Shown one piece after another: positions 1 to 12,217 of a DNA stretch of 64,000 nucleotides. Position 1 is the first letter of the stretch. Each line of letters opens with the position of its first letter. Both the position numbers and the translations under genes were made by a program. The notes below the pieces were generated by a model that worked only from the letters and a program-made list of their open reading frames with translations, had not been told where the DNA came from and ran no database searches. The stretch is from the NCBI GenBank assembly GCA_965203465.1, contig CBDBCR010000003.1, positions 768,001-832,000 on the forward strand, written 5' to 3'. This DNA comes from Nitrosopumilaceae archaeon (GTDB lineage: Archaea > Thermoproteota > Nitrososphaeria > Nitrososphaerales > Nitrosopumilaceae).

Positions 1-167
1 TCCCGCACCGCCCTTACGACGTCCTCTTTGCTTATTTTCGGTCCCAGCGTGTTGCGGATCCATTCCAGATCGGACTCCAGCTTTCCGGTCTTGCCTTCGT
101 CAAGCGCGCGCTCCCTGGCGCGCTCGCGCGTCCGCAGTTCGTAAAGGAAGTTGACGCGGTTTTTGAG
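1..167 (-). pseudogene. 3' part of a VapB-like antitoxin gene interrupted by IS630 (runs off the window start)
   Basis: Minus strand reads LKNRVNFLYELRTRE...DLEWIRNTLGPKISKEDVVRAVR. This aligns with ILKNRVKHLYDSWARE...DLEWIHKTFGSTISKEEVVRSIR of the intact copy at 52356..52640. Confidence 0.75.
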
Positions 168-169
168 TA

Positions 170-1318
170 TAGTATCTTAGATTGACATTCGGTAGTTTTT
201 TGGCACGAATGATCAGACCGTAAGATAGTCATGCATCTTTACGATTTTGATGCGACCGGATCTTAGAGCTTTCAATACTTCCCTTTTCAGCTGCCCGATG
301 TCGTCAAAAAACTGGTTGGCGATGTAGCGCTTGACCTCCCTCCACTGGGCTTCGATCGGCACAAGCTCTGGGGTGTACTTGGGCAGGAACCGCACGACGA
401 TGCCGCCGTCGGTTTTCTCGTACAGCCTCTTGAACACGGCCTCGCTGTGGTACGAGGCGTTGTCCGTGTAGACAAGCAGCTTGCCCATCTTTTTGTACGC
501 CCTTGTGAGGAACGCCTCGACGTTCTCTGCATTGCCCGTGTCGCAGAACTCGAAGTAGCTCTGGCCTCCGGCCCCTACGACTCCGAGCAGGGTGGCCCGG
601 CCTTTCCGCCTGCTCGTGATGTCGACCCTGACCTGTTCGGCGCGCTTGCCCTTCCTCCTTTTCTTGCGGTACCATCCTTTCCGGACTATGCTCTGCATGG
701 ATACGTGCATTTCGTCAAAGGAAACGGCCAGATGCCCGCGCCCAGCGTAGATTGCTACGGTTCTGTGAGCTTTTTTTTGAAATCCTTGATTTCTGCCGGA
801 GACGCCCCCCGTACGTCGCGGGGCGGGGCTTGATGTACACGAAGCCCAGCCGGTTCACCAGATCCCAGACGGAGTGGACATGGTACTCTACGCTGAACTT
901 TTTCTTTATGTGCGTCCTGATCAGCGGTATCGTCCAAGCACCAGATCCGAGTCCGATCGCTGCGGGACCAGCTTCCAGATCCCGCTCGAGCGCCTTGATC
1001 TGGCGCTTGGTGAGCTTGCACGCTGCCCCTTTGTTCTTTATGTCGCATCTCTTGTTCAGGCCGTTCTTCTCGATGTTCCTTATCCAGTTGGTCACCGTGC
1101 TGCGCGGAATGTTCAAGCCCTTGGATATTTCCGCGATGGTCTTTCCCTGCTTCCTTTGTATGCATACCACCAGCCTGCTTTGTGCCTTTGGATCTTTTTC
1201 CTTCCGATGCATGTCGCACAGGCGGGCCATGTTCACTTTGGGAAGAAACCTCCTCGCCATGGGGCCCCCCCGGCGTGCCGCTATTTAGATCTTTACCCAA
1301 AGTCAATCTAAGATACTA
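170..1318 (-). mobile_element. IS630-family insertion sequence (~1.15 kb)
   Basis: Terminal inverted repeats TAGTATCTTAGATTGAC (170-186) and GTCAATCTAAGATACTA (1302-1318), flanked by duplicated TA (168-169, 1319-1320). Encloses an HTH + DDE transposase. Confidence 0.93.
213..1260 (-). CDS. IS630 transposase, frameshifted (HTH part 715..1260; DDE part 213..~775)
   Basis: N-terminal HTH (TIAEISKGLNIPRSTVTNWI; WTIPLIR). Slippery TTC AAA AAA AAG at ~770-781, where the -1 frame gives AHRTVAIYAGRGHLAVSFDEMH. Catalytic FDE / TDNASYH / PELVPIEAQW. One extra 1-bp loss in a C-run at KPRP|RDVRG (~820-828). Confidence 0.85.
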
Positions 1319-1429
1319 TACGACTCCCCGATCTTCGCGCGTGGCGGAGGCGATCGCCGCGGCGCCAAAGGCGGGGGCCCGCGCGGGTTCGGAATTTAAG
1401 GCCGGCAGCAATCCAGAGTCTGCGGGCGC

Positions 1430-1957
1430 TCACAATTTGCCGGGAAAAACGAACTTGTTCCACACGTACCTGAACGATCCGTTCTGCGACTTTGCGGTCT
1501 TTACGTCGAATTCCTTGAGCGTCTCCATCATAAAGTCGTATCTGGACTTGAATTTTTGAGGCTTCAATGCGTCAAACTCTTCCTTGGTTATGCCGTCCGT
1601 GCTTGACTTGTACCGGAAGCCCAGCTTCCGGGCGGCGGCGTTCCCTATGCCGGCCAGATACCAGCTTTCGATCTCGGTCCGGACGATGGCTATGCGGGAT
1701 TCGTCGGCGTTCGGGATCTTGCGTTTGAGTTTTTCCTTGCTCTTGCCAAAGCACGTATGGGGCAAGTCTGAATCTGCGAGCACGATGTAGGGGGAGCCGT
1801 TGCGGTTCAGGCCCTCTATGTACCGTTTGTTTGAATCCGGGCGTTGGGTCGCGTAAAAGTAGGGCTTTATTCGGTATTTTGAGAGTTTGGTACCGAACAC
1901 CTTCTTAAAAAACCGTGCATCGTCCCGGCCCTCCAACAGCACGTGCAACGTCTTCAT
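1430..1957 (-). CDS. TOPRIM-like nuclease partner (DUF4276/DUF4435-like)
   Basis: VLLEGRDD, VLADSD and RTEIESWYLAG motifs. Abuts the ATPase gene; paralog at 12218..12766. Confidence 0.7.
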   Translation of the reverse strand: MKTLHVLLEGRDDARFFKKVFGTKLSKYRIKPYFYATQRPDSNKRYIEGLNRNGSPYIVLADSDLPHTCFGKSKEKLKRKIPNADESRIAIVRTEIESWYLAGIGNAAARKLGFRYKSSTDGITKEEFDALKPQKFKSRYDFMMETLKEFDVKTAKSQNGSFRYVWNKFVFPGKL

Positions 1958-3238
1958 CTAATCACCCAGCAGGCACTGCACATGCATCTCCCCTATGTCC
2001 ATCTCGCTTTCCAAGAACGACTGCACCTCGCTCTCCTCGGATGGGCGCGTGATGAGCGAAGAGCCCGAATCGCCCCTGCTTATCAGCAGGAGTCGGTCTA
2101 TTCCCGATTGCCTCACGATTTCGGGGCTGTGCGTTGTGATGATGATCTGTTTGCTGGACGATGCGTCCTTCATCATGTCCACCATACCCGAAAGCAATGC
2201 AGGGTGCACGCTCCTTTCTGGTTCTTCGATCACGGCGAGCTGCGCGTCTTCGAAATACAGCGCCACGACCAGCGCTACCGCGTTGGTAGTGCCGTCCGAT
2301 ACCAAAGCTGCCGGCAGATGCTTGCCTTTGGAATAACTCTCCTCCGTCATAAACACCAAGGACTTGTCCACCGTGCTTTTGACGCCAAGGGACTTTACGA
2401 ACGGGAGTATGTCGGATGTCAAGTTGTTGAATTGTCTTCTTTTTTCAGCGTTTGACAGTATATCCCTCAGCACTAGCGGAAGGTTGGAACCGTCGGTCTC
2501 CAGTCCGAGCCTGCCCCCTATGGCGGAGGGCCGTTTTGCTAGTTTTGGGGCAAAGTCGTAGATTTCAAGCTGGCTGAAGAAATAGCCTACCCACGGGAAC
2601 ATGATATCTACGACTATGTGCGATTCCAAAATGGACTTGTTCTTGGCGGTCTTTGATCCGTATCCGTACACTGTCCTGTATAGATTCAGTTGTTTTTTGG
2701 ACACGATGTCGATGGGAAAGTCGGGCTCGAAGAACAGCTTGCCGTTTTCCGACTTTATGTTCAGTATGCCGTCTATGCGCCCTTTCTTGTTGGTGCCGTC
2801 TATGCGCCCTTTCTTGTTGGTGCCGGTCATGTAAAAACGCCACGCGTCGGACAGGATCTTGAACCCCGACCTCTGGCCCATCTCTATTTCGAAACTCCAT
2901 TTTACGTGCGTGTTGTGGAGCACGTATTGTTGGTTGGACAGATTTCCGGGGAGCGGTATTTCCGGAAAGTCTATTTCCAGCTCGATCGACATGCGGTTGT
3001 CGCCGTTGAAATTCCGCACGTATTCGATCCCTCCCTGGATTGCCAGCGCGTCGGCCAGTCCCCCGCGCATGTCTTTGAGAAACTGAAAGATCTGCCCAAA
3101 GTTGGACTTGCCCGAAGCGTTAGAGCCCACTAGCACATTGAATTCTTTGAACTCAACGTCCAAATCTACAAAGCTCTTGAAATTGTGCACCTTCAGCCGC
3201 TTCATGAACGCCTCGCGCATGAGGTGCCGGCCCGTCAC
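1958..3238 (-). CDS. ABC/AAA_21-type ATPase (RecF/AriA-like)
   Basis: VHNFKSF, Walker A GSNASGKSN, signature VSDGT, Walker B VIEEPE, H-switch TTHS. Confidence 0.85.
   Translation of the reverse strand: MTGRHLMREAFMKRLKVHNFKSFVDLDVEFKEFNVLVGSNASGKSNFGQIFQFLKDMRGGLADALAIQGGIEYVRNFNGDNRMSIELEIDFPEIPLPGNLSNQQYVLHNTHVKWSFEIEMGQRSGFKILSDAWRFYMTGTNKKGRIDGTNKKGRIDGILNIKSENGKLFFEPDFPIDIVSKKQLNLYRTVYGYGSKTAKNKSILESHIVVDIMFPWVGYFFSQLEIYDFAPKLAKRPSAIGGRLGLETDGSNLPLVLRDILSNAEKRRQFNNLTSDILPFVKSLGVKSTVDKSLVFMTEESYSKGKHLPAALVSDGTTNAVALVVALYFEDAQLAVIEEPERSVHPALLSGMVDMMKDASSSKQIIITTHSPEIVRQSGIDRLLLISRGDSGSSLITRPSEESEVQSFLESEMDIGEMHVQCLLGD
2767..2825. repeat. 27-bp in-frame tandem duplication (GTNKKGRID x2)
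   Basis: tgccgtctatgcgccctttcttgttgg is repeated at 2767-2793 and 2794-2820. Confidence 0.9.
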
Positions 3239-3587
3239 TACAATTAATATCTATACCGCGATCCCGGATTCCGGCAAATCCTGGTGAGCCGGGGCCCGGT
3301 GCGGAGGTACGGCCCCGTCGATCGGGCGTTTTCACGCCGGCTGCGGCCGGATCCGGCCCCGGGCCCCAAGCGCCCGAATCCGCAGCTCTCCGCGGGGGAG
3401 TTCGCCCCCACGGTTTAAGTGAGGCGCGCAGAAAAGGCCGGCAGTGAAGGTCAAAGTAAACGTCAACGTCCTCCCCTTCGGGCACTACAGGACGGAGGAG
3501 GCGCAGTCCGAATCGACCGTCGAGATTGCCCCGACCCCCATAATAAAAGACTACACGTCGGGTTCTGTGTAATCAGCGAGACCCGGC

Positions 3588-4709
3588 CTAGCCCGCGTGG
3601 AGCCGGTGCAGGGCCGCGTTCTGGATCAGCGTCTTCCAGCGATCGGGCCCGTCTATGTCTATCAAGGCCGCGTCCGAGGGCGTCCGGCCGCCCAAGCCGC
3701 CGTGCTTTTTGACGCAGTTGTAGTGGGCCTGGAACCCCGGTATCAGCGGCGTGTGGAACTTCTTGAGGCCCCGGAAATTCACCTCGCGCTCCCGCACCGT
3801 CCCGTTGAGCCGTTCCATCTTGTTGTTGTTCATCTCTTTCCGCAGGTGGATGTACCGCCAGTGCTGGGTATCGGGGCCGAACACCCTGATGCTCGACTTC
3901 ATGTAGTTGGGCAGCCCATCGGTGACGAAGTGGGCCGGCGCCTTACCCAGCTTCCGCTTGGTGGCCTCCAGCAGGTTGTCCGCGTCGTGCTGGAACTTGG
4001 TCTCGGCCATCTCGGCGGCCAGCCAGAACCGCGTGTCGTCCTCCATGGAGCCGAACAGGTACTTTAGTTCGCCGGCTATCTTGATCCAGACCTCGTCGGC
4101 CCGGGCCATGGCCCGGTCGGAGGTGCGCGGCACCACGTCGTGCAGGTATTCGGATACGGACTTTGAATACTCGGCTACCCAGTTGTATATGGTCTTGTGT
4201 GATATTTTGACGCCCTCGGTCTCGAACTCGTCCGCTATATCCCGGACGCTCATGCCCTTGTAATACGTCCGGACGGCCCGGGTTATCGTCTTGGGGCGAA
4301 AGTGCTTCTTTTCGAACCCCGGGTTGTCTGTAAACCTGCGGCCGCAGTCGCCGCACTTGAGCAACTGCACCGGGCCGGCCTTGGTCTTGCGCGTGCCCTT
4401 CTTGGCTACGTTGCCCGAGTCGCAGAACTTGCACACTTGGCGGCCGGCCCTTTCCATGATCCGGAACGGCGCCCGCTTGAAGAGTTGGTTGCGGCAAAGC
4501 GCCCGCAACACAACCTTGATGTGCTTGCAGTCGGCCCCGCGGGTCCGGTGATCCGGGCACTCGCAGACCAGCCCCGAGCCGGTGCGCTTCACCTCGTACC
4601 TCTTGTCCGGGTCCGTCTGCGAGCGGACGCTGAACGTGTCCGGATCTGACTGGCCGGCCGCGCCGGCCTGCTTGAGCATCTCGACTGCGCGGGCGGTGCG
4701 GGCGTTCAT
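3588..4709 (-). CDS. IS6-family DDE transposase with N-terminal SWIM and Zn-ribbon
   Basis: SWIM CECPDH...CKH; CKFC...CGDC; HTH SVRDIA...SHKTIYNWV; DDE triad RADEVWIK / VTDGLPNY / NNKMERLNG. Confidence 0.88.
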   Translation of the reverse strand: MNARTARAVEMLKQAGAAGQSDPDTFSVRSQTDPDKRYEVKRTGSGLVCECPDHRTRGADCKHIKVVLRALCRNQLFKRAPFRIMERAGRQVCKFCDSGNVAKKGTRKTKAGPVQLLKCGDCGRRFTDNPGFEKKHFRPKTITRAVRTYYKGMSVRDIADEFETEGVKISHKTIYNWVAEYSKSVSEYLHDVVPRTSDRAMARADEVWIKIAGELKYLFGSMEDDTRFWLAAEMAETKFQHDADNLLEATKRKLGKAPAHFVTDGLPNYMKSSIRVFGPDTQHWRYIHLRKEMNNNKMERLNGTVREREVNFRGLKKFHTPLIPGFQAHYNCVKKHGGLGGRTPSDAALIDIDGPDRWKTLIQNAALHRLHAG

Positions 4710-4788
4710 GCCTGTAGTCTAAGGCTAGTCTATTAAAACCTTTAGGGCGACGTATAGACTATTATAGCCTGCTCTGGAGGAGGGCGGC
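4710..4788. promoter_or_regulatory. Divergent promoter region with repeated TAGTCTA boxes
   Basis: TAGTCTA at 4715-4721 and 4726-4732, inverted copy TAGACTA at 4755-4761, AT-rich TATTAAAA, and GGAGG before the ATG at 4789. Confidence 0.5.
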
Positions 4789-5046
4789 ATGGACAAGACG
4801 TCGCTGGTACAGGTCAACAAGAGCGACTCGCTGCGCACGACGGTGCCCGCGAGCATCGTGAAACTGCTCGATCTGCGCCAGGGCGATCGTGTAGAGTGGG
4901 ACGTGCTGCCGGACGGAAACAGGTTCGCCGTAAAGATCGAATTCGTAAAACCAAAGGACGCGCGAACCAAAGGACGCGCGAACCAAAGGACGCGCGAACC
5001 AAAACCGGTCAGGGCGCCGCGTTCGTCACGGCCGCGGCAATTCTGA
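4789..5046 (+). CDS. AbrB/MazE/SpoVT-type DNA-binding protein
   Basis: SLRTTVPASIVKLLDLRQGDRVEW is a typical swapped-hairpin signature. Confidence 0.8.
   Translation: MDKTSLVQVNKSDSLRTTVPASIVKLLDLRQGDRVEWDVLPDGNRFAVKIEFVKPKDARTKGRANQRTREPKPVRAPRSSRPRQF
4949..5003. repeat. 16-bp tandem repeat x3.4 (AACCAAAGGACGCGCG)
   Basis: Units at 4949, 4965 and 4981, plus a partial unit at 4997, in the AbrB C-terminal tail. Confidence 0.9.
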
Positions 5047-5079
5047 CCGGCAATTAATTCTTGGCCGGGGGCGGCGCTC

Positions 5080-7896
5080 CTGACCACCAGCGAGCCGACG
5101 GCCAACGCGGCCCTGGCCGAGGTGCTCGACGGCCTGCGCCGGAACTGGTCGGTGAAGGGCGAGCAGATGGGGGGAGTCCTCCGGGGAGGCAAAAGGCCCG
5201 ATCTAATCGCGCTTGAGCAAGGCCGTTCTCCGATCTTAGTCGAAGTTGAATTCTCACCCGCGGCAACGCTGGAAAAAGACGCGCTCGCGCGCCTGCACAC
5301 CGTCACCAAGGACGGCCAAGAGGTGGCGGCCGTCGTGTCGGTCCGGCTTCCGGCACGGCTCAGAAAAGTCGGCGGCGAAAAACTCAGGAAAGAACTGCGC
5401 GCGGCGGCGGATCTGGAATACGCCGTGTACCAGCCCGGACGGTTCCCGAAAACCGGGTACGTCAAGGGCGGCGTCACAGACATCGCGCAAATTATCCAAA
5501 ATGTGTCGCTGCCCGCCGAAATAATCGGCGAATGGGTGAAAGAGATGAGTGGTGCGATAGAGAGCATCGCCAAACTGCTCGCCGGAAGCGGTAGGGACAC
5601 CAAGAAGAAGATAGCCGATCTTCTGTCGCTGAACGAAGGCAGACAGACCTGGCGCATGGCCGGGCTGATACTGTCCAACGCATTCGTGTTCCACAGCCAC
5701 ATAGCGGGCGAGCGCGGCATAAAGACTCTCCAAGAATTGATCGTCTTGGACACGGTGCCCACGGCCAGCTTGGTGGCCGAGTGGGGCAGGATACTCAAGA
5801 TCAACTACTACGCCATATTCGACGTGGCGCGCAGCATCATCACGTACGTGAAAGACGCGGACGCGGAGGACATCATACGGGTGCTGCTGGACACGACCGG
5901 CAAGATCAACGCGCGCGGCCTGTCCACGTCGACGGACATGTACGGCACGCTTATCCAAAAAATGATCGAGGACCGCAAGACGCTCGCCTCGTTCTACACC
6001 CTCCCAGAATCGGCCGCGCTACTGGCCGGCCTGGCCGTCCCGCCAGCAGGCTCCGACGTCTATTCCTCGCCCGAATCCATGAAAGAGTTCAGGTTCGGAG
6101 ACTTTGCGTGCGGGACGGGCGCGCTGCTGACCACGGCCTACAAGGTGCTGATCGCCAACTACGAGGCGGCCGGCAACGATATGCGGAAGATACACGATTC
6201 CATGATGGGTGGGGCCATATTCGGGTTCGACGTGCTGCCCAGCGCCGTCCACCTGACCGTATCGTCGCTGGCCGAGATATTCCCAAAAAAACTGTTCACG
6301 GAGACCAAGGTCGGGAAGCTCTTGTACGGAAGGCGCGACTCCGAGTTGCGTCTGGGTTCGCTGGATCTGATCTCCAAACAGAGCACTCTGGGTGGGGGAG
6401 GCGACTACGTGACCGGTACGGCATCGGACACGTTCTTCAGCCCGACCGTACCGGACGGCTATTTCTCGCTCGTCTTGATGAACCCGCCGTTCACGAGGAA
6501 CGCCAAAGGAGGGGCAGATCGTCACGCAATGTTCGCGTCGTTCGGCACGGACAGGGACGATCAGAGGAAAATGGCGGCAATGGAAAAGAAGCTGTTCAAA
6601 ACCACGTGCGCGCACGGCAACGCCGGAGCCGCGTCCAACTTCGTGGCCATCGCCGACAAGAAACTCAAGCCGGGCGGCGTGTTGGGCTTGGTGCTGCCGT
6701 CCACGATAGCGTGGGGTTCGTCGTGGAAGGCATGCAGGGATCTGCTGAAGGACGGCTACGAGGATCTGACGGTGGTCAGCATCGCCGCGTCCGACATATC
6801 CACCATGGCGTTTTCATACGATACGGACATGGGCGAGGTTCTGGTGGTGGCACGCAAACGCGAGCGTCCGGCCGACGGGCCTCCGCGCGGCCGGTTCGCA
6901 TCGTTGCGCAGGCGCCCGGAATCCGTGCTCAACTCAATCGAATTATGCAAGGACATACTCAACTCGAAACCGAACAGGCTCGACGGCGACAATTACGGAG
7001 GCACGCCGCTCAAGGCGGGCCGAGACGTACACGGAAGCGTGCTGGACTGCCCGCTTGACGATGAATGGTGGTGGCCAGTGGCCGTGCGGGATCAAAACCT
7101 GATCCAGTTCATGTACCGCCTGTACCGCGGACAGTTCGCGCTTCCGAATCCGTTGTGCGGATCCGGTTCGATTCCCATGACTAGGGCGGGAGCCAACTTC
7201 GGCTTGGTGGGAAGGGACATAGCGGACGGCAAAGACGACTGCAAACGCGCCCCCTTCACGAGTCATCCGTACGACACGGGCGCGGTATACCCCGTCTTGA
7301 TGAACAACGATTCAGACAAACAGACACACATGATGGTCAAGCCCGACTGCATGGCAATCCCGAAAACATGCGCCAAAAAAGAAGACGTGGTGAGGGTGGC
7401 CGCGGACGCCACGCGCCTGCATGTCAATAGCACGTGCAGATACACCAGCCAGCGCGTGTTGTTCCCGTATACGGCAAAACCCACGCTTGGTTCGTCCGTA
7501 TTCCCGTCATTCAACACAGCGCCGGAGCACGAGAAGGCCATGGCGGTCTGGGGCAACAGCACGCTTGGAATACTCTGTTTCTGGACGCATGCAGGCAAAC
7601 AGCAACTGGGCCGCGGAAGGGCCAGCAGAACGTCTATGGAAAACATGGCCGTGTTGAACGCGCCAAAACTGAAAAAAACAGCCTTGGCCAAACTCGACAG
7701 GATATTCGACAAATACTGCAAAAAGGAATTTCTGCCAATGAACCTTTGCTACAGGGACGAAAACAGGATGGCCATGGACGCCGAGATGCTCGCGGCCCTG
7801 GGCATCGACGAGCCCATAGACGATCTGCGGGTACGGTTCTGCCGCGAGCCGCTGGTGCGGAGCGGCCGGGAGGATCCGGAGCTGGACGCGCTGTAG
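5080..7896 (+). CDS. Type IIG-like fused restriction endonuclease / N6-adenine methyltransferase
   Basis: N-terminal PD...EVE nuclease motif (RPDLIA...LVEVEF), motif I DFACGTG, motif IV MNPPF and a C-terminal TRD-like region. Start is either GTG 5122 or an inferred CTG 5080. Confidence 0.85.
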   Translation: MTTSEPTANAALAEVLDGLRRNWSVKGEQMGGVLRGGKRPDLIALEQGRSPILVEVEFSPAATLEKDALARLHTVTKDGQEVAAVVSVRLPARLRKVGGEKLRKELRAAADLEYAVYQPGRFPKTGYVKGGVTDIAQIIQNVSLPAEIIGEWVKEMSGAIESIAKLLAGSGRDTKKKIADLLSLNEGRQTWRMAGLILSNAFVFHSHIAGERGIKTLQELIVLDTVPTASLVAEWGRILKINYYAIFDVARSIITYVKDADAEDIIRVLLDTTGKINARGLSTSTDMYGTLIQKMIEDRKTLASFYTLPESAALLAGLAVPPAGSDVYSSPESMKEFRFGDFACGTGALLTTAYKVLIANYEAAGNDMRKIHDSMMGGAIFGFDVLPSAVHLTVSSLAEIFPKKLFTETKVGKLLYGRRDSELRLGSLDLISKQSTLGGGGDYVTGTASDTFFSPTVPDGYFSLVLMNPPFTRNAKGGADRHAMFASFGTDRDDQRKMAAMEKKLFKTTCAHGNAGAASNFVAIADKKLKPGGVLGLVLPSTIAWGSSWKACRDLLKDGYEDLTVVSIAASDISTMAFSYDTDMGEVLVVARKRERPADGPPRGRFASLRRRPESVLNSIELCKDILNSKPNRLDGDNYGGTPLKAGRDVHGSVLDCPLDDEWWWPVAVRDQNLIQFMYRLYRGQFALPNPLCGSGSIPMTRAGANFGLVGRDIADGKDDCKRAPFTSHPYDTGAVYPVLMNNDSDKQTHMMVKPDCMAIPKTCAKKEDVVRVAADATRLHVNSTCRYTSQRVLFPYTAKPTLGSSVFPSFNTAPEHEKAMAVWGNSTLGILCFWTHAGKQQLGRGRASRTSMENMAVLNAPKLKKTALAKLDRIFDKYCKKEFLPMNLCYRDENRMAMDAEMLAALGIDEPIDDLRVRFCREPLVRSGREDPELDAL

Positions 7897-8063
7897 GATG
7901 CCGGTCACGGGTCTCGCTGATTACACAGAACCACACGTCGATATCCGAATCGGTTACCCTGCAGTAGGCCGGCCTTTCCCCGCCTCCGGCCGCGCGCAGA
8001 ATCCGGGCGGCCAACGCCCCAAGCGGCTCGCCGGGCGCGCCGACCCCGGGCGTCCCGCGCGGC

Positions 8064-8770
8064 TCAGGCCTCCGGCCACCTGCGCCGGTAGCGCGTCACG
8101 TCCAGGCCGCCCAGCGTTATCTTGCCCCCCACACGAACGAGGCTCGGTACTTGCGGCTCATCCTCGCTATGCGGCCCGACTCCACGTGCTTTTGGACCTC
8201 CGAGTGCGGCATCACCAGAAAGTCGTTGCAGGCGCCGGAACGCACGACGAACGCATAGTACGCGCCCGGGAGGCCGAACTTTTCGTGCGCGCCGGGCGGG
8301 ATGAAAAACGAGCACTTGTCGCGCACCGGCACGGACGTCTTCACCTGGAAAAGGAAGCGCCTGCCCCCCTTTGCAGCGAAGACGTCAGTTTCCGCGTCGA
8401 CGGCGGCCACGCGGGCGTCGAACCCGTAAAAGAGCAGCTCGCTGGCCACCGAATGCTCGCCGGCCCTGCCGTTGAAGAGGATCCGGCCGGGCGCGTTGGA
8501 CGTCGGCCTTCCCGCGCAGCCGCGCGCGCCCGGAGGTCCCTGCTGGTCGAGCCCGAACCGCTCGCCGCGCCGGACGAATTCAGAGTCCGGGCCGCGCCGC
8601 CGCATGTCGCCCGAAAGGACCGCCTTCATGATCCGTTCCGGCGCCCGCGTCGTTTGGCCCGGATCCAAGAGCCCGCGCTGCACCGCCTTTTTGACGATCT
8701 CGGCAGCCGTAAGCAGCCTGTACCCGTCCGACAGCACCTCGATCGCCGATTTCCTGAAGGGCTGCGCCAC
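8064..8770 (-). CDS. HARE-HTH (HB1) + PD-(D/E)XK nuclease, copy 1 (1-bp frameshift near the 3' end)
   Basis: AIEVL...AEIVKKAVQRGLL...PERIM...SEFVR..FGL winged helix, then GEHSVASELL...TDVFA...FQVKTS. The terminal ITLGGLDVTRYRRRW is in another frame after a G-run at ~8125-8130. Confidence 0.7.
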
Positions 8771-9003
8771 GGCGCGGCCGCGGGCACCCGGCATTCAAGT
8801 CGCCCCCGGAGCCTGGCGCAGCCCCAGCAGCGGCGCGCGGCAGGGCGCCTGCGGTCTCGACGATCCGCGGCAGGCAGGCGCGGCGGCCCCGCCTCCGGAA
8901 TGCGCGGGGCAGCGTCGATCAGCCCGCCGCCCTTCCGGGAAGTTTGGCCACGCAAAGCCGCAGATCAAGCATGTTTAAAAAACGGGGCGCGCGGACGCTC
9001 CGC

Positions 9004-9486
9004 ATGGGGGTATCCCGGGTGTATCTCGATACGTATTACCTGCTGGAGATAGTGCTCAAGGGCCACAAGAAGCACGACGCAGAGAAGATCTTGTACAAGG
9101 CCAGCAAGGGCAGTTTCGAGATAGTCGTCCCCCAGATCGTCCTGGGCGAGGCGGTCTCCAAGATACTGAAGCGCGGCAGGGACGCGCGGCCCCTGATGGA
9201 CCGGCTCGTAGGCACGATCGAAAAGTACGGGATCGACGTAGACAGATGCCTGGTTCCGGTGGCCAAGAGCGCGTTCGAGATCATGGAGGAGGTGCGCGGC
9301 AGGGATCAGCGACTCGACGGCACGGACATCGCTATATTGGCCCACGCGCTGGCCGATCCCGACGCAAAGGTCTTCCTCACGATAGACTGCGACATGACGG
9401 ACAATCCGGCTATCGGCGAATACGAAAGGAAACTGAGAAGCGAGGGGCGGCGGAACGTAAAGCTGAATATCACCGATCGCATTTGA
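9004..9486 (+). CDS. PIN-domain (VapC-like) ribonuclease
   Basis: Acidic PIN motifs VYLDT, LGEA, GTDIAILAHA and FLTID. Confidence 0.8.
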   Translation: MGVSRVYLDTYYLLEIVLKGHKKHDAEKILYKASKGSFEIVVPQIVLGEAVSKILKRGRDARPLMDRLVGTIEKYGIDVDRCLVPVAKSAFEIMEEVRGRDQRLDGTDIAILAHALADPDAKVFLTIDCDMTDNPAIGEYERKLRSEGRRNVKLNITDRI

Positions 9487-9958
9487 TCATGTCCGCGCTC
9501 TCCAGACCGCGCAGCGTCTCCTCTATGAACCCGCGCGTGAACCCGACCTTGGTGTCCTCCGTGTTTTGGAGCAGGATGTCCCTTTCCGGTATGCGCTTCC
9601 TCTTGGAGAGCAGCGTGGCGGCTATCTCCAGCCAGTCGTTGTTCCTGTTGCGGACAAAGTCGAGGAACTGCCCGCTCCTGAACTGTTGCGGAAGCTCGGG
9701 CCGGGCTTTGCTGTATTGCTCCGGGTTTTCCGCCAGGCCGTAGTAGTCTTCCGTCAGGGTCCCCGAATACGGCCCGTACAGGTACATGCCGTGCCTGTAG
9801 GGAACGTCCAGCCCAAAGTACTTTGCCAGGAACACGTACTTTTGGATCCTGAACCGGTTCCAGAAATGGCGGTCTTCCCCGCCCAGTATGTCGAATTCGA
9901 CCAGGTTCTCGCTCTCCAAGTACTTTATGAACCCGGGCAGCACCGGCGCGCCTTCCAC
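9470..9958 (-). CDS. YwgA/SocA(Panacea)-like protein
   Basis: RFRIQKYVFLAK...YLYGPYSGTL...WLEIAATL. GTG start inferred at 9958. Confidence 0.65.
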   Translation of the reverse strand: MEGAPVLPGFIKYLESENLVEFDILGGEDRHFWNRFRIQKYVFLAKYFGLDVPYRHGMYLYGPYSGTLTEDYYGLAENPEQYSKARPELPQQFRSGQFLDFVRNRNNDWLEIAATLLSKRKRIPERDILLQNTEDTKVGFTRGFIEETLRGLESADMIKCDR

Positions 9959-10143
9959 GGGCCGCCGTCCGCGCCGGCGCGTTAAATTTCTTTCCTGCGC
10001 GGGCAGGCGCGGCCCCGCCGCCGGATTGGCGGCGCGCCGGCCCGGCGGCGCGTCCCGGACGGCCGGCCCGGCCGTGGCCGCGTTGCCCAGCACGCCCCTT
10101 TTCCGCCCCGGGCGCCGCGGCGTCCGAACAGGGCAGGGCTTTG

Positions 10144-10824
10144 TCAGGCCCGCGGCCACCTGCGCCGGTAGCGCGTCACGTCCAGGCCGCCCAGCGTTAT
10201 CCTCTTTCCCCAGACGAGATCGGCGCGGTACTTGCGGCCCAGTTTTTCGATGCGGCCCGACCTGACGTGCCTTTGGATCTCGCGGTACGGCATCACCAGA
10301 AAGTCGCTGCCTGCATCCGAGCGCATCACGAACGCATAGTAGGCGCCGGGGCGGCGCAGCTTTTCGTGCGCGCCGGCCGGTATGAAGAACGAGCACCGGT
10401 TTCGCACCGGCGCCGACGTCTTCACCTGGAAAAGGAAGCGCCTGCCGCCCTTTTCGGCGACGATGTCCGCCCCGCCGTCCCCGGCCGCGCGCGCCTCGAA
10501 CCCGCGAAAGAGCAGCTCGGCGGCCACCGAATGCTCGCCGGCCATGCCGTTGAGCAGCGCCCGCCCCGGGTCGGCGCCGGTCGGGCCGGGCCGCAGCAGC
10601 GGGTTGAGCCCGAAAAGGCCGCCGCGCCGCGCGAACCGCGAGCCGGCGCCGAGCCGCCGTATGTCGCAGGAGAGCACCGCGCTCATGGTCCGTTCCGGCG
10701 CCCGCGCCGTTCTCGGATCCAAGAGCTTTCGCCGCGCGGCCTTTTCGACTATCGCGCCGGCAGAGAGGGGCCTGCGCTCGTCGGACAGCACCTCGAACGC
10801 CGAGCTCTTGAAGGGCTGCGCCAC
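10144..10824 (-). CDS. HARE-HTH (HB1) + PD-(D/E)XK nuclease, copy 2 (intact)
   Basis: Close paralog of 8064..8770 with GEHSVAAELL...ADIVA...FQVKTS. TTAAATA box lies ~23 bp upstream of GTG 10824. Confidence 0.72.
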   Translation of the reverse strand: MAQPFKSSAFEVLSDERRPLSAGAIVEKAARRKLLDPRTARAPERTMSAVLSCDIRRLGAGSRFARRGGLFGLNPLLRPGPTGADPGRALLNGMAGEHSVAAELLFRGFEARAAGDGGADIVAEKGGRRFLFQVKTSAPVRNRCSFFIPAGAHEKLRRPGAYYAFVMRSDAGSDFLVMPYREIQRHVRSGRIEKLGRKYRADLVWGKRITLGGLDVTRYRRRWPRA

Positions 10825-10957
10825 GGCGCGGCCGCGGGCCCACCCGTATTTAACGCGCACCGGGGGCCGGCCCGCGTGTACGGGCGCGCGCTGCCGGGAC
10901 GCCGCGCGGAACCCGCGCGCAAGCAATGATTATTAACTCAGGCGCGACGGCCCCGGC

Positions 10958-12217
10958 GTGGCGGGTCCGTTCATCAAGCGCATAAGGGTGCAAAACTTCA
11001 AGAGCTTCGCAGACGCGGATCTGGAACTGGGCAGGTTCAACGTCATCGTCGGCGCCAACGCGGCCGGCAAGTCGAACTTGGTGCAGATCTTTAGGTTCCT
11101 GCGCGACATCCGGCGGGACGGGCTGGACAACGCCGTCTCCATGCAGGGCGGCCCGCAATACATACACAACCTGAGACTGGGCGACAACAGCACGTCGATC
11201 GAACTGGAGACCGCGCTGTCAAAGGGATTTCGCATCCCGGTCCCGACCAAGCACAAGGCATACAGCACGGGGGGGAAATGGCGCCTCGAATTCAAGACGG
11301 AGGGGCAAAAGATCGAGATAGTGGAGGATTCGTGCACGTTCCGCGTCTCCGACTGCGCCGAGCGGGATTTGGGCGACTTTGTGGGCGGCGCGGACGGGCA
11401 GCAGGCGGACGATCAAAAGAGCGGGCGCCGCGAAGGAAGCGTCAAAGTAACGCGCAACGGCGGCCTGTGCTTTGACGTGGATTTTGACGCGGATCTCAGA
11501 GAGGCGCTTGACAACTATACGACCAAATCGCACGCCAGAAAAAACGAGCTGCTCGTAGAATCCGGGCTTTTGGGCCACCTCTTTCCGCGGATCTTTTACT
11601 TTGAGGACATCGGCACGTACGACTTCGACTCCAAACGCGCCGGTGGATCCGTCCCGGTGAAGGGAACGCCGGAGCTGGAAGACGACGGCTCCAACCTGGC
11701 CGTGGTGCTAAAGGACATACTTTCAAACGACGCCGGCAGAAAGTCTCTGCACGCCGTAGCCTCCGACCTGCTGCCGTTTGTAAAGTCCATCGGCGTCAAG
11801 GATCTGGTGAAATCGGTCATGTTTACCCTCACCGAAGAACGCATCGAAAAGACGCCCCTGCCGTCCCCCCTGCTCTCCGACGGAACCGTCAACGCGGTGG
11901 CCCTGATCGTCGCGCTGTATTTCGAGGAGATGCCGGTAGTGGTGATAGAAGAGCCCGAAAAGAGCATGCACCCCTCCCTGATGGCCAGGACGGTGGATAT
12001 GATGAAGGACGCCTCCAGAAACAGCCAGATCATAGTGACCACGCACAGCCCGGAGCTGGTCCGTTACGCAGGACTGGACAGCCTGTACTCGATCAAGAGG
12101 GGAGAGGACGGGTCTTCAGAGGTCAGCCGCCCGTCGACGAACAAAGAGATCAAAAAGTTCCTGGAAAACGACATGGGCATAGAGGAGATGCATGTGCAGA
12201 ACATGTTCGACTGGTAA
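10958..12217 (+). CDS. ABC/AAA_21-type ATPase, paralog of 1958..3238
   Basis: QNFKSF, GANAAGKSN, LSDGT, VIEEPE and TTHS motifs. Confidence 0.85.
   Translation: MAGPFIKRIRVQNFKSFADADLELGRFNVIVGANAAGKSNLVQIFRFLRDIRRDGLDNAVSMQGGPQYIHNLRLGDNSTSIELETALSKGFRIPVPTKHKAYSTGGKWRLEFKTEGQKIEIVEDSCTFRVSDCAERDLGDFVGGADGQQADDQKSGRREGSVKVTRNGGLCFDVDFDADLREALDNYTTKSHARKNELLVESGLLGHLFPRIFYFEDIGTYDFDSKRAGGSVPVKGTPELEDDGSNLAVVLKDILSNDAGRKSLHAVASDLLPFVKSIGVKDLVKSVMFTLTEERIEKTPLPSPLLSDGTVNAVALIVALYFEEMPVVVIEEPEKSMHPSLMARTVDMMKDASRNSQIIVTTHSPELVRYAGLDSLYSIKRGEDGSSEVSRPSTNKEIKKFLENDMGIEEMHVQNMFDW

Follow-up and report, generated by a model that had tools for sequence, protein, structure and literature searches.

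A probable IS6-like transposon with passenger genes, among them a putative restriction-modification gene, in an ammonia-oxidising archaeon

The stretch of DNA analysed here (the window; 64,000 nucleotides, positions 768,001 to 832,000 of the forward strand of contig CBDBCR010000003.1, Nitrosopumilaceae assembly GCA_965203465.1) contains at positions 3561-7932 what is read here, with a probability of roughly 85%, as one autonomous DNA transposon with recent activity, from an IS6-like archaeal lineage, the members of which characteristically hold passenger genes between their own two ends. The element measures 4,372 bp from tip to tip and comprises three open reading frames (ORFs): a transposase of 373 amino acids (3588-4709, minus strand), an AbrB-like protein of 85 amino acids encoded divergently from it (4789-5046, plus strand), and a large protein of 924 amino acids counted from a GTG codon (5122-7896, plus strand), which Pfam matches, alignments and the predicted fold present as a single-chain restriction-modification (R-M) enzyme. 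The host is an ammonia-oxidising archaeon, since archaeal amoA is present in its genome and public records list its relatives under Nitrosopumilus or Cenarchaeum. An earlier note, made from the letters of this stretch without database searches, had described the element as a complete IS6-family cargo transposon with an R-M gene and that gene's own regulator, and most parts of that description are taken up below.

The element, its transposase and its mobility

The element is delimited by a left and a right inverted repeat (IRL, 3561-3585, plus strand; IRR, 7908-7932, minus strand) that consist of GGTTCTGTGTAATCAGCGAGACCCG and its reverse complement and pair at all 25 of 25 bases, both by direct reading and in the output of a repeat finder, where they form the longest inverted repeat listed for the region. 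When up to three mismatches are allowed, IRL and IRR are the sole sites of this 25-mer in the window, against a chance expectation of 0.00 (100 shuffles). Direct reading also shows an exact 8-bp target-site duplication, ACACGTCG, which abuts both tips (3553-3560 on the left and, identical to it, 7933-7940 on the right). The outer stop codons lie very close to the repeats, that of the transposase 2 bp from IRL and that of the large ORF 11 bp from IRR, and a search with the 16-nt tip at up to three mismatches detected no third, internal end in the element. The organisation is that of a tIS, i.e., passenger genes between the element's own two ends together with a single transposase, given that the AbrB-like and the R-M gene both lie inside and no third end is present. 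Every coordinate that the earlier note had given for the perfect repeats, the exact duplication and the 4372-bp span was thus verified, as was its placing of the outer stops within about 12 bp of the repeats and of a single transposase in one unit. The word intact, which it used of the repeats and the duplication, is borne out for these; a correction applies to the R-M gene, the conserved N-terminal segment of which (5047-5121) is encoded in frame ahead of the first canonical start.

The transposase matches the Pfam family DDE_Tnp_IS240 (PF13610; 40.4 bits, cut-off 27, E=3.9e-10), and the NCBIfam model that fits it best is the IS6 equivalog NF033587 (122.5 bits, 1.8e-35, model positions 1-201 of 202). 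Its sequence comprises a SWIM-like CxC..CxH motif (C49, C51, C61, H63), a zinc ribbon (C93, C96, C119, C122), a helix-turn-helix and the catalytic set D205, D264 and E299 with R306, in which the arginine follows the glutamate by seven residues. In an alignment of 34 homologues D205, D264, E299, R306 and the four zinc-ribbon cysteines are invariant, in agreement with the single SWIM/zinc-ribbon DDE transposase that had been noticed inside the unit. A tblastn search of the plasmids in PLSDB returned 15 listed matches, 14 of which are annotated as transposases, mostly named as IS6 family (IS6100, IS240, IS26), and one of which carries no annotation; moreover, a Nitrosopumilus protein 57% identical to the transposase is named 'IS6 family transposase' by NCBI/PGAP. 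No PADLOC model matched either the transposase or the AbrB-like protein. According to the available text of the review of this family (PMC7986276), the hallmarks of IS6 are tips with GG and a cTGTt motif, target repeats of 8 bp and a length of 0.7-0.9 kb (at most 1.76 kb) that is filled by the transposase. The tips of the element read GGTTCTGTG... at both ends and thus have the GG start and the cTGTt motif of the IS6 definition (GG..CTGT), while a 'caaa' motif is absent from them, and the 8-bp duplication is represented by ACACGTCG. The small one-ORF organisation is not found, as the element has 4,372 bp and three ORFs as against 0.7-0.9 kb (at most 1.76 kb).

Information on mobility comes from assembled contigs of the public runs X3 (study P2), X5 (study P3), X6 and X7. 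The element is present at ~99.9% identity in two other studies, where other DNA starts exactly at the repeat tips. At the right end, the contigs of X3 and X5 diverge from the window directly after 7932: a 2,587-nt contig of X3 (record 5) matches 5673-7932 with two differences and continues with 327 nt of unrelated sequence, and X5 record 13 matches up to 7932 and continues with 278 unrelated nt. At the left end, X5 record 9 has 1,162 unrelated nt before 3560, the match stopping at 3560/3561. The 30-nt flank that follows 7932 in X3 is absent from the genome studied here, the own right junction of which is spanned by 75 nt in X7 record 30. Because near-identical copies have different flanks, the element has moved or rearranged recently, and the recent insertion that had been suggested from the intact repeats and duplication is thereby supported. 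Neither the metagenome contigs nor the genome contigs contained a match to a 22-nt end pattern (0 in each). A joint in X5 that connects 3359 to 3793 was considered as a variant of the element and rejected; it is read as the other insertion sequence (IS) of 1.5 kb that is described in the next section.

Relatives, cargo enzyme and hinge gene

The genome contains 13 transposase-like matches and a second IS6-like cargo element of 4,435 bp (C3:312218-316652; positions 2219-6653 of locus L011), the repeats of which, beginning GGTACTGTTGCG and GGCACTGTTGCG, agree at 37 of 38 positions and are accompanied by the duplication GGGCAGGG. This element encodes a 317-aa transposase (43% identical), an AbrB-like protein, an N6_N4 methyltransferase that is split into two frames and possibly frameshifted, and two further ORFs of 435 and 85 aa. 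The same genome also has a plain IS of 1,507 bp (C3:897039-898545), whose 24-bp repeats (GATTCCGACAAATCC...) are accompanied by the duplication AGGCCGCC and whose zinc-finger transposase is 36% identical; at C3:499301-500781 lies a degenerate copy of this IS with 1,481 bp. Elsewhere (C3:932610-935210), two long perfect inverted duplications of at least 60 bp (932610-932669/935151-935210 and 932944-933003/934814-934873) surround two facing transposase fragments.

Beyond this genome, homologues of the transposase were found in 20 of the 41 related genomes searched, this one counted. A first survey considered the 20 best-scoring transposase loci. Six of them (L036, L038, L040, L041, L042 and L046) are bounded by IS6-type tips and an exact 8-bp duplication, which in L040 has a one-base register ambiguity, and span 2,680-6,770 bp. 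Four more (L031, L032, L043 and L045) have repeats only (19-20 of 20 positions) and no duplication, a state compatible with cointegrate transposition that is no demonstration of it, and the remainder consists of one weak case (L037) and nine loci without bounded ends. The cargo includes a type I HsdM with HsdS, a Dam-type methylase with an HNH protein, an 821-aa type IIG enzyme, an N6_N4 methylase, AbiV and unknowns. One of the six bounded elements (L038 9092-12088, 2,997 bp, duplication GAATCCTG) has a third, internal end-like sequence at 10813 (16/20) that bounds a transposase-only sub-unit of 1,722 bp, which hints at the capture of cargo through the use of a more distant end.

In the second survey, meant as a sample free of hand-picking, a 34-sequence profile was run over one genome per species and yielded 584 stretches with 526 confirmed relatives, of which 79 loci were kept; their sources are Nitrosopumilus, other Thaumarchaeota, Bathyarchaeia, Methanoperedens, Methanoregulaceae, Asgard archaea and, under a bacterial label, two bins. 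Loci were accepted by a script when the gene was spanned by tips that agree at no fewer than 14 of 20 positions, together with an exact 8-bp duplication. Forty-two loci passed, and two (L117 and L119) were dropped for palindromic 'duplications' and non-GG tips, leaving 40 elements; the survey overlaps with the first one (L099 is the L031 locus), and elements with repeats only are under-counted by the script. Hence 40 of the 79 loci are bounded by repeats and an exact 8-bp duplication, with lengths of 1,970-7,034 bp (median ~3.7 kb), and none is as small as a transposase with its ends. R-M-type domains were detected in 12 of the 40 when Pfam was run on all 145 non-transposase ORFs of at least 70 aa. 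These twelve are split between the Nitrosopumilus group (10 of 16), which holds the nearest relatives of the element (transposases 53-60% identical to that of the window), and all other sources (2 of 24). Their cargo includes CfrBI, BsaWI and BglII nucleases, EcoRI and N6_N4 methylases, GmrSD and three type IIG/MmeI-like enzymes, other cargo among the 40 consists of NurA, ParB with DprA, NYN, GNAT and SocA, and about half of the elements have unannotated ORFs only. The transposase clade forms a wide and apparently undescribed archaeal group in which the carriage of passengers is the rule. The earlier note had guessed at a family with swappable cargo and had proposed to search related genomes with the repeats and the transposase and to list what lies between them; the 40 bounded elements with their many different cargoes, 12 of them of R-M type, answer to that expectation. 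In the longest element (L121 4173-11206, 7,034 bp) the MmeI-like cargo gene is itself split by an inserted DDE_Tnp_4 transposase gene, which separates its MmeI_N, helical and methyltransferase domains from its target-recognition and C-terminal domains.

The R-M protein of the window element has a predicted domain order of PD-(D/E)xK-like nuclease, HsdM-N-like helical domain, gamma-class N6-adenine methyltransferase and target-recognition domain. Family libraries (Pfam, NCBIfam, PADLOC) gave only weak matches in the methyltransferase region, to Eco57I, N6_Mtase, PglX and type IIG models. At least 233 relatives exist, mostly of 900-1,000 aa, and full-length bacterial ones are 33-35% identical; within the archaeal family, R-M homologues occur in 20 of 301 genomes. 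In an alignment of 61 sequences D352, C355, G356, G358, N479, P480 and P481 are invariant and F482 is conserved in at least 90%, which corresponds to the motifs DFACGTG and NPPF (DxxCGxG, NPP), presumably motifs I and IV of gamma-class methyltransferases. The nuclease-domain residues D52 and E66 are likewise invariant among the homologues, and E68 is also present. An AlphaFold2 (AF2) model of the translation of 5047-7896 has a predicted local distance difference test (pLDDT) score of 87.3 and a predicted template modelling (pTM) score of 0.89. In Foldseek the best match of this model is BpuSI, a type IIG enzyme (E=3.2e-20), with BrxX/PglX, CamA, DrdV and LlaBIII next, and a second structural aligner gives CamA (Z 25.7, residues 293-920), DrdV (Z 22.6, 18-919) and BpuSI (Z 20.3, 128-943). 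The first 150 residues, folded alone (pLDDT 92.3), match TT1808 (Z 8.7), the nuclease domain of BpuSI (Z 8.6, root-mean-square deviation 3.1, 119 residues), the N-terminus of HsdR (Z 7.6), residues 20-148 of DrdV (Z 7.4) and Hjc resolvases, a list made up almost wholly of PD-(D/E)xK nucleases. A profile of the 61 sequences against the sequences of solved structures gave motif-level matches only (DrdV E=0.008, BrxX 3e-6). Together, fold matches and domain order point to the architecture of a single-chain type IIG/IIL R-M enzyme, as predicted from the models.

The small gene beside the transposase encodes a protein that matches the Pfam family MazE_antitoxin (PF04014, AbrB/SpoVT fold) over residues 13-43 with 28.9 bits (cut-off 24.7), so that the divergent AbrB-type gene seen by the earlier note is present, above the gathering cut-off and on the strand opposite to the transposase. 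The motif SLRTTVP is common to the AbrB-like proteins of the window element, L011 and L040, and in the latter two the gene occupies the same hinge position. Of the 40 surveyed elements, 14 contain a gene that matches a profile of these three proteins, whatever their cargo; in all 14 it lies on the strand opposite to the transposase and just upstream of the transposase start. Recognisable R-M genes occur in only two of these 14. Since the gene stands beside the transposase irrespective of the cargo, it looks like a part of the transposon core and not like the R-M gene's own regulator, the role that had been assigned to it before. In the remaining surveyed elements this position is taken by unrelated small ORFs of no significant family. 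The small ORFs beside the transposase in the AT-rich relatives L031, L038, L041, L042, L043 and L045 had been taken by eye for ribbon-helix-helix proteins, a reading that was dropped, as they have no significant Pfam match (best RHH_1, E=0.031).

Between the starts of the transposase and the AbrB-like gene lies a divergent, AT-rich hinge of 79 bp (4710-4788), a candidate promoter and operator region that contains the palindrome TAGTCTAT (4726-4733) / ATAGACTA (4754-4761). At the other end of the AbrB-like gene, a perfect tandem repeat of 16 bp in 3.4 copies (4949-5003, plus strand) lies inside the 3' tail of the ORF and extends this tail just upstream of the in-frame R-M stretch at 5047-5121. 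Changes in copy number of this repeat would shift the AbrB stop among 5044, 5055 and 5081, beside the start-less R-M frame that is considered below. The contigs of X3, X5 and X6 end at 4974-4978, inside the repeat, and because of these breaks in three runs its copy number in the other samples is not readable.

Alternative explanations

A number of results weigh against the reading of 3561-7932 as an autonomous, recently active IS6-like transposon with functional cargo, in whole or in part. As to its affiliation, the transposase narrowly misses the NF033587 cut-off of 125 bits, and among the plasmid matches listed its identity to the classical IS6 transposases (IS26, IS6100, IS240) is 24-31%. 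Because of these two results 'IS6-like' is a safer label than 'IS6 family', and by sequence comparison membership appears borderline: of the family assignment made in the earlier note, the Pfam match, the best model, the tips and the 8-bp duplication stand, and the missed cut-off, the low identity and the size of the element go against it. The same results favour the alternative that the lineage is a separate family in the same DDE superfamily, with a long zinc-finger transposase, a hinge regulator and an obligatory passenger space, and that its transposition pathway may differ from the IS26 cointegrate model. Sizes of 2-7 kb, where ISfinder members have 0.7-0.9 kb (1.76 kb at the most), and weaker matches of the transposase to IS1, IS481 and IS66 models, also fit with this alternative. 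However, the IS6 model is the best one by far (1.8e-35 vs. 2.4e-12 for the second-best NCBIfam model), the element has both the GG..cTGT tips and the 8-bp duplication that define IS6, relatives are called IS6 family by PGAP, and the available text of the review already places the zinc-finger-extended clades h and i within IS6. A separate family is considered rather unlikely, if far from negligible.

As to mobility, the 25-mer is found in the 2.26-Mb, four-contig genome again at IRL and IRR alone, meaning that there is one copy. The left and right flanks of one copy in another context never occur on the same contig, and because both are not seen together a new duplication cannot be read; a rearrangement at the tip (e.g., an adjacent deletion) would mimic a fresh insertion in these contigs. 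The empty-site allele that the earlier note had proposed to look for did not appear: no contig in X3, X5, X6 or X7 joins 3560 to 7941, and a DNA search with window 1-12000 against four other genomes of the genus detected similarity to the transposase gene only and no flanks. The single copy and the failure to find an empty site in these four genomes and four runs would be expected of a structurally intact but now immobile relic of a single past insertion in this genome, as would the position of the element in a stretch rich in IS debris, where 3263-3360 resembles the ends of another IS. Nevertheless, the repeats are perfect, the duplication is exact, all catalytic residues are intact and ~99.9% identical copies with different flanks exist in two other studies, which makes such a relic very improbable.

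The remaining points against the reading concern the cargo and the hinge. An 8-bp palindrome within 79 bp is weak evidence for the role of an operator or a regulator. The fold matches of the N-terminal domain are middling (Z 7-9), and Foldseek on this domain alone gave no match at E<=0.001. A transposase is nearby at only one of the 12 homologous R-M loci examined, the sole bounded transposon of this kind among them being L088 (~9 kb, duplication GATATGGT). The idea that this R-M gene family is always transposon-borne was rejected on this ground, and the R-M gene is therefore ordinary chromosomal stock that was captured by the element. At a further locus (L081, G022 C1:683000-698500), a 41%-identical R-M homologue is flanked by perfect inverted duplications of at least 600 bp (4114-4724 and 10567-11177), an arrangement that may represent a different mobile or invertible unit.

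A further difficulty lies at the start of the R-M reading frame. In both the full-length and the N-terminal model, a helix of residues 16-28 opens the PD-(D/E)xK-like nuclease domain; within it Glu16 and Asn20 recur in 90% or more of 63 sequences, and R-M homologues of 78-82% identity begin with a methionine upstream of it. In the window, the in-frame stretch that encodes the start of this helix according to alignments, AF2 model and translation (5047-5121, plus strand) follows directly after the AbrB stop codon TGA (5044-5046) and contains no ATG, GTG or TTG. The first canonical R-M start is the GTG at 5122, which corresponds to Val26, and Glu16 and Asn20 lie upstream of it. Of the ~930-aa fused nuclease-methyltransferase proposed in the earlier note, the architecture is supported by the predicted fold of BpuSI/DrdV type, with the qualification that the first nuclease helix may be missing if translation starts at GTG 5122. 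As no canonical start precedes the helix, this copy may restrict DNA less well or not at all. Translation begins either at a rare start codon or by re-initiation, or else the protein of this lineage lacks its first nuclease helix. The start-less arrangement is kept in a near-identical copy, X3 record 4, which matches 4974-5700 with one difference.

These observations (the lack of ATG, GTG and TTG between the TGA and the GTG at 5122, the conservation of Glu16 and Asn20, the methionine starts of close homologues and the place of helix 16-28 in the nuclease domain of both models) are what an alternative would explain in which the cargo is a methyltransferase only, or an attenuated R-M enzyme. The start codon would then have been lost, and initiation at GTG 5122 would drop most of the first nuclease helix (alpha-1) including Glu16, so that the element would spread an epigenetic mark or protective methylation and not restriction. 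This explanation has to contend with the retention of the arrangement in near-identical copies, with a cluster (P0002) that is 89% identical and is called from the same position, with the intact D52, E66, E68 and rest of the nuclease domain, and with the possibility of a rare start (ATT 5053 or CTG 5080) or of re-initiation after the abutting AbrB stop, and it is held to be doubtful here, although by no means implausible. A more speculative and improbable reading is that the clade constitutes a dedicated, self-regulated gene shuttle of archaea, in which a core of transposase and AbrB-like hinge regulator would couple the expression of the transposase to the safe establishment of the downstream cargo, much as C proteins time R-M genes, and in which the 16-bp x 3.4 repeat at the AbrB/R-M junction would be a slippage-prone switch that sets the level of full-length nuclease and toggles the system between a restricting and a methylation-only state.

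Genomic setting, known systems and significance

The insertion site lies in non-coding DNA between a gene for an AAA_21/AAA_15 ATPase (1958-3238) and a HARE-HTH gene (8117-8794, minus strand), ~190 bp from the remnant of another IS end (3263-3360) that resembles the end of the plain 1,507-bp IS. The ATPase (426 aa), which matches the PADLOC models HEC-01A, AriA and mad3, forms a gene pair with a 175-aa ORF (1430-3238), and a diverged paralogue of the ATPase in opposite orientation lies ~7.8 kb away (about 10900-12000). The surroundings of the element look like a defence island. The right neighbour has a HARE-HTH domain at E=8.6e-9, and a paralogue of it (C3:740095-740912, 76-85% DNA identity) adjoins a transposase pseudogene of the same superfamily (C3:741284-742072). 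Further to the left, what looks like another insertion sequence is a 1.15-kb repeat (168-1320) that has at least five additional copies in the genome at 89-94% identity and in which two ORFs (181 and 165 aa) follow each other on the minus strand. Searches for RNA genes were negative, for tRNAs over window 1-12000 and for Rfam families (E<=0.1) over 3000-8600.

Among known elements, the closest likeness is to the IS6 family (IS26, IS6100, IS240, IS257), with which the element shares the IS240/IS6-type DDE transposase, the GG/CTGT tips and the 8-bp duplication, and in particular, as far as the available text of the review describes it, to clade h, which has a comparable N-terminal zinc-finger extension (PMC7986276). 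The earlier note had characterised IS6 elements as transposase-only units of ~0.8 kb that move cargo as two-IS composites. This agrees with the same text, in which other IS6 cargo is moved as two-copy pseudo-compound transposons, a single member with a passenger gene, ISDsp3, being the exception (Varani et al., 2021, PMC7986276), and in which the archaeal members are short ones of 700-750 bp. Like ISDsp3, the window element has non-transposase DNA between its own ends; unlike the IS6 members catalogued there (~0.8 kb, at most 1.76 kb), it has 4,372 bp and two passenger genes, and it is set apart from classical IS6 by its SWIM-type finger and by the AbrB-like gene divergent from the transposase. 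Moreover, whereas ISDsp3 stands alone in the IS6 family as covered there, passengers are the rule in the present group, where 40 of 40 bounded elements have at least 1,970 bp. The cargo protein shares its predicted domain order with BpuSI (3S1S), DrdV (7LO5) and MmeI-like enzymes; it differs from BpuSI and DrdV in that the likeness in sequence is limited to the methyltransferase motifs, and from type IIG/IIL enzymes in its nuclease motif (E16...PD52...E66-x-E68 instead of ExK) and in having its first helix upstream of the first canonical start.

R-M genes on units with inverted repeats have been described before in bacteria. In the accessible portion of the report by Furuta, Abe and Kobayashi (2010, PMC2853133), R-M units are enclosed by inverted repeats, in some cases together with short target duplications, and one of them has a gene with transposase motifs beside a type IIG homologue; most have no transposase, and the authors were unable to name the mover. 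The window element differs from the units as presented there by its intact cognate transposase, its relatives and its copies in other contexts. A further parallel, within the text available for each, is provided by Tn7-like elements (PMC8649781) and the toxin-antitoxin modules of the Tn3 family (PMC7157771), which likewise have variable, defence-rich cargo and a small AbrB/MazE-fold or antitoxin-type gene beside the transposition genes. Those elements, as described, are bacterial and much larger, and their transposase families and mechanisms are unrelated; in addition, the AbrB-like gene of the window has no toxin partner beside it, unlike the modules of the Tn3 family. A 2019 survey of thaumarchaeal mobile elements, in the part available, lists IS-like transposons of one or two genes and did not detect passenger-carrying ones, and a full-text literature search, within the text it could reach, found no description of the present architecture.

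If 3561-7932 is, as preferred here, an autonomous transposon of this IS6-like lineage, its transposase would bind the 25-bp repeats and move the whole 4.4-kb unit by a copy-in route of the IS6/IS26 type, in which a cointegrate would be formed and resolved by host recombination, leaving the 8-bp duplication. The AbrB-like protein would probably be the element's own repressor or timer, acting through both divergent promoters on the transposase and on the cargo operon. The cargo enzyme would place N6-adenine methylation on a motif in the host's DNA and cleave incoming DNA that lacks it, which would benefit the host and may at the same time make the loss of the element costly.

In bacteria, defence and resistance genes travel over short ranges mainly on transposons with passenger genes. 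The finding varies a known kind of element and adds no new principle. In the window, a clean, complete and evidently live cargo transposon is present in an ammonia-oxidising archaeon, and its architecture appears to be the norm for a transposase clade that extends across Nitrosopumilaceae, Bathyarchaeia, Methanoperedens and Asgard archaea, with R-M genes as the commonest recognisable cargo. This would offer a concrete way by which R-M systems, and hence methylation patterns and virus resistance, come to be patchily distributed among close archaeal strains. The compact set of transposase, ends and regulator is a candidate genetic tool for archaea, and the many unannotated cargo ORFs of the clade are a place in which to seek new defence genes.

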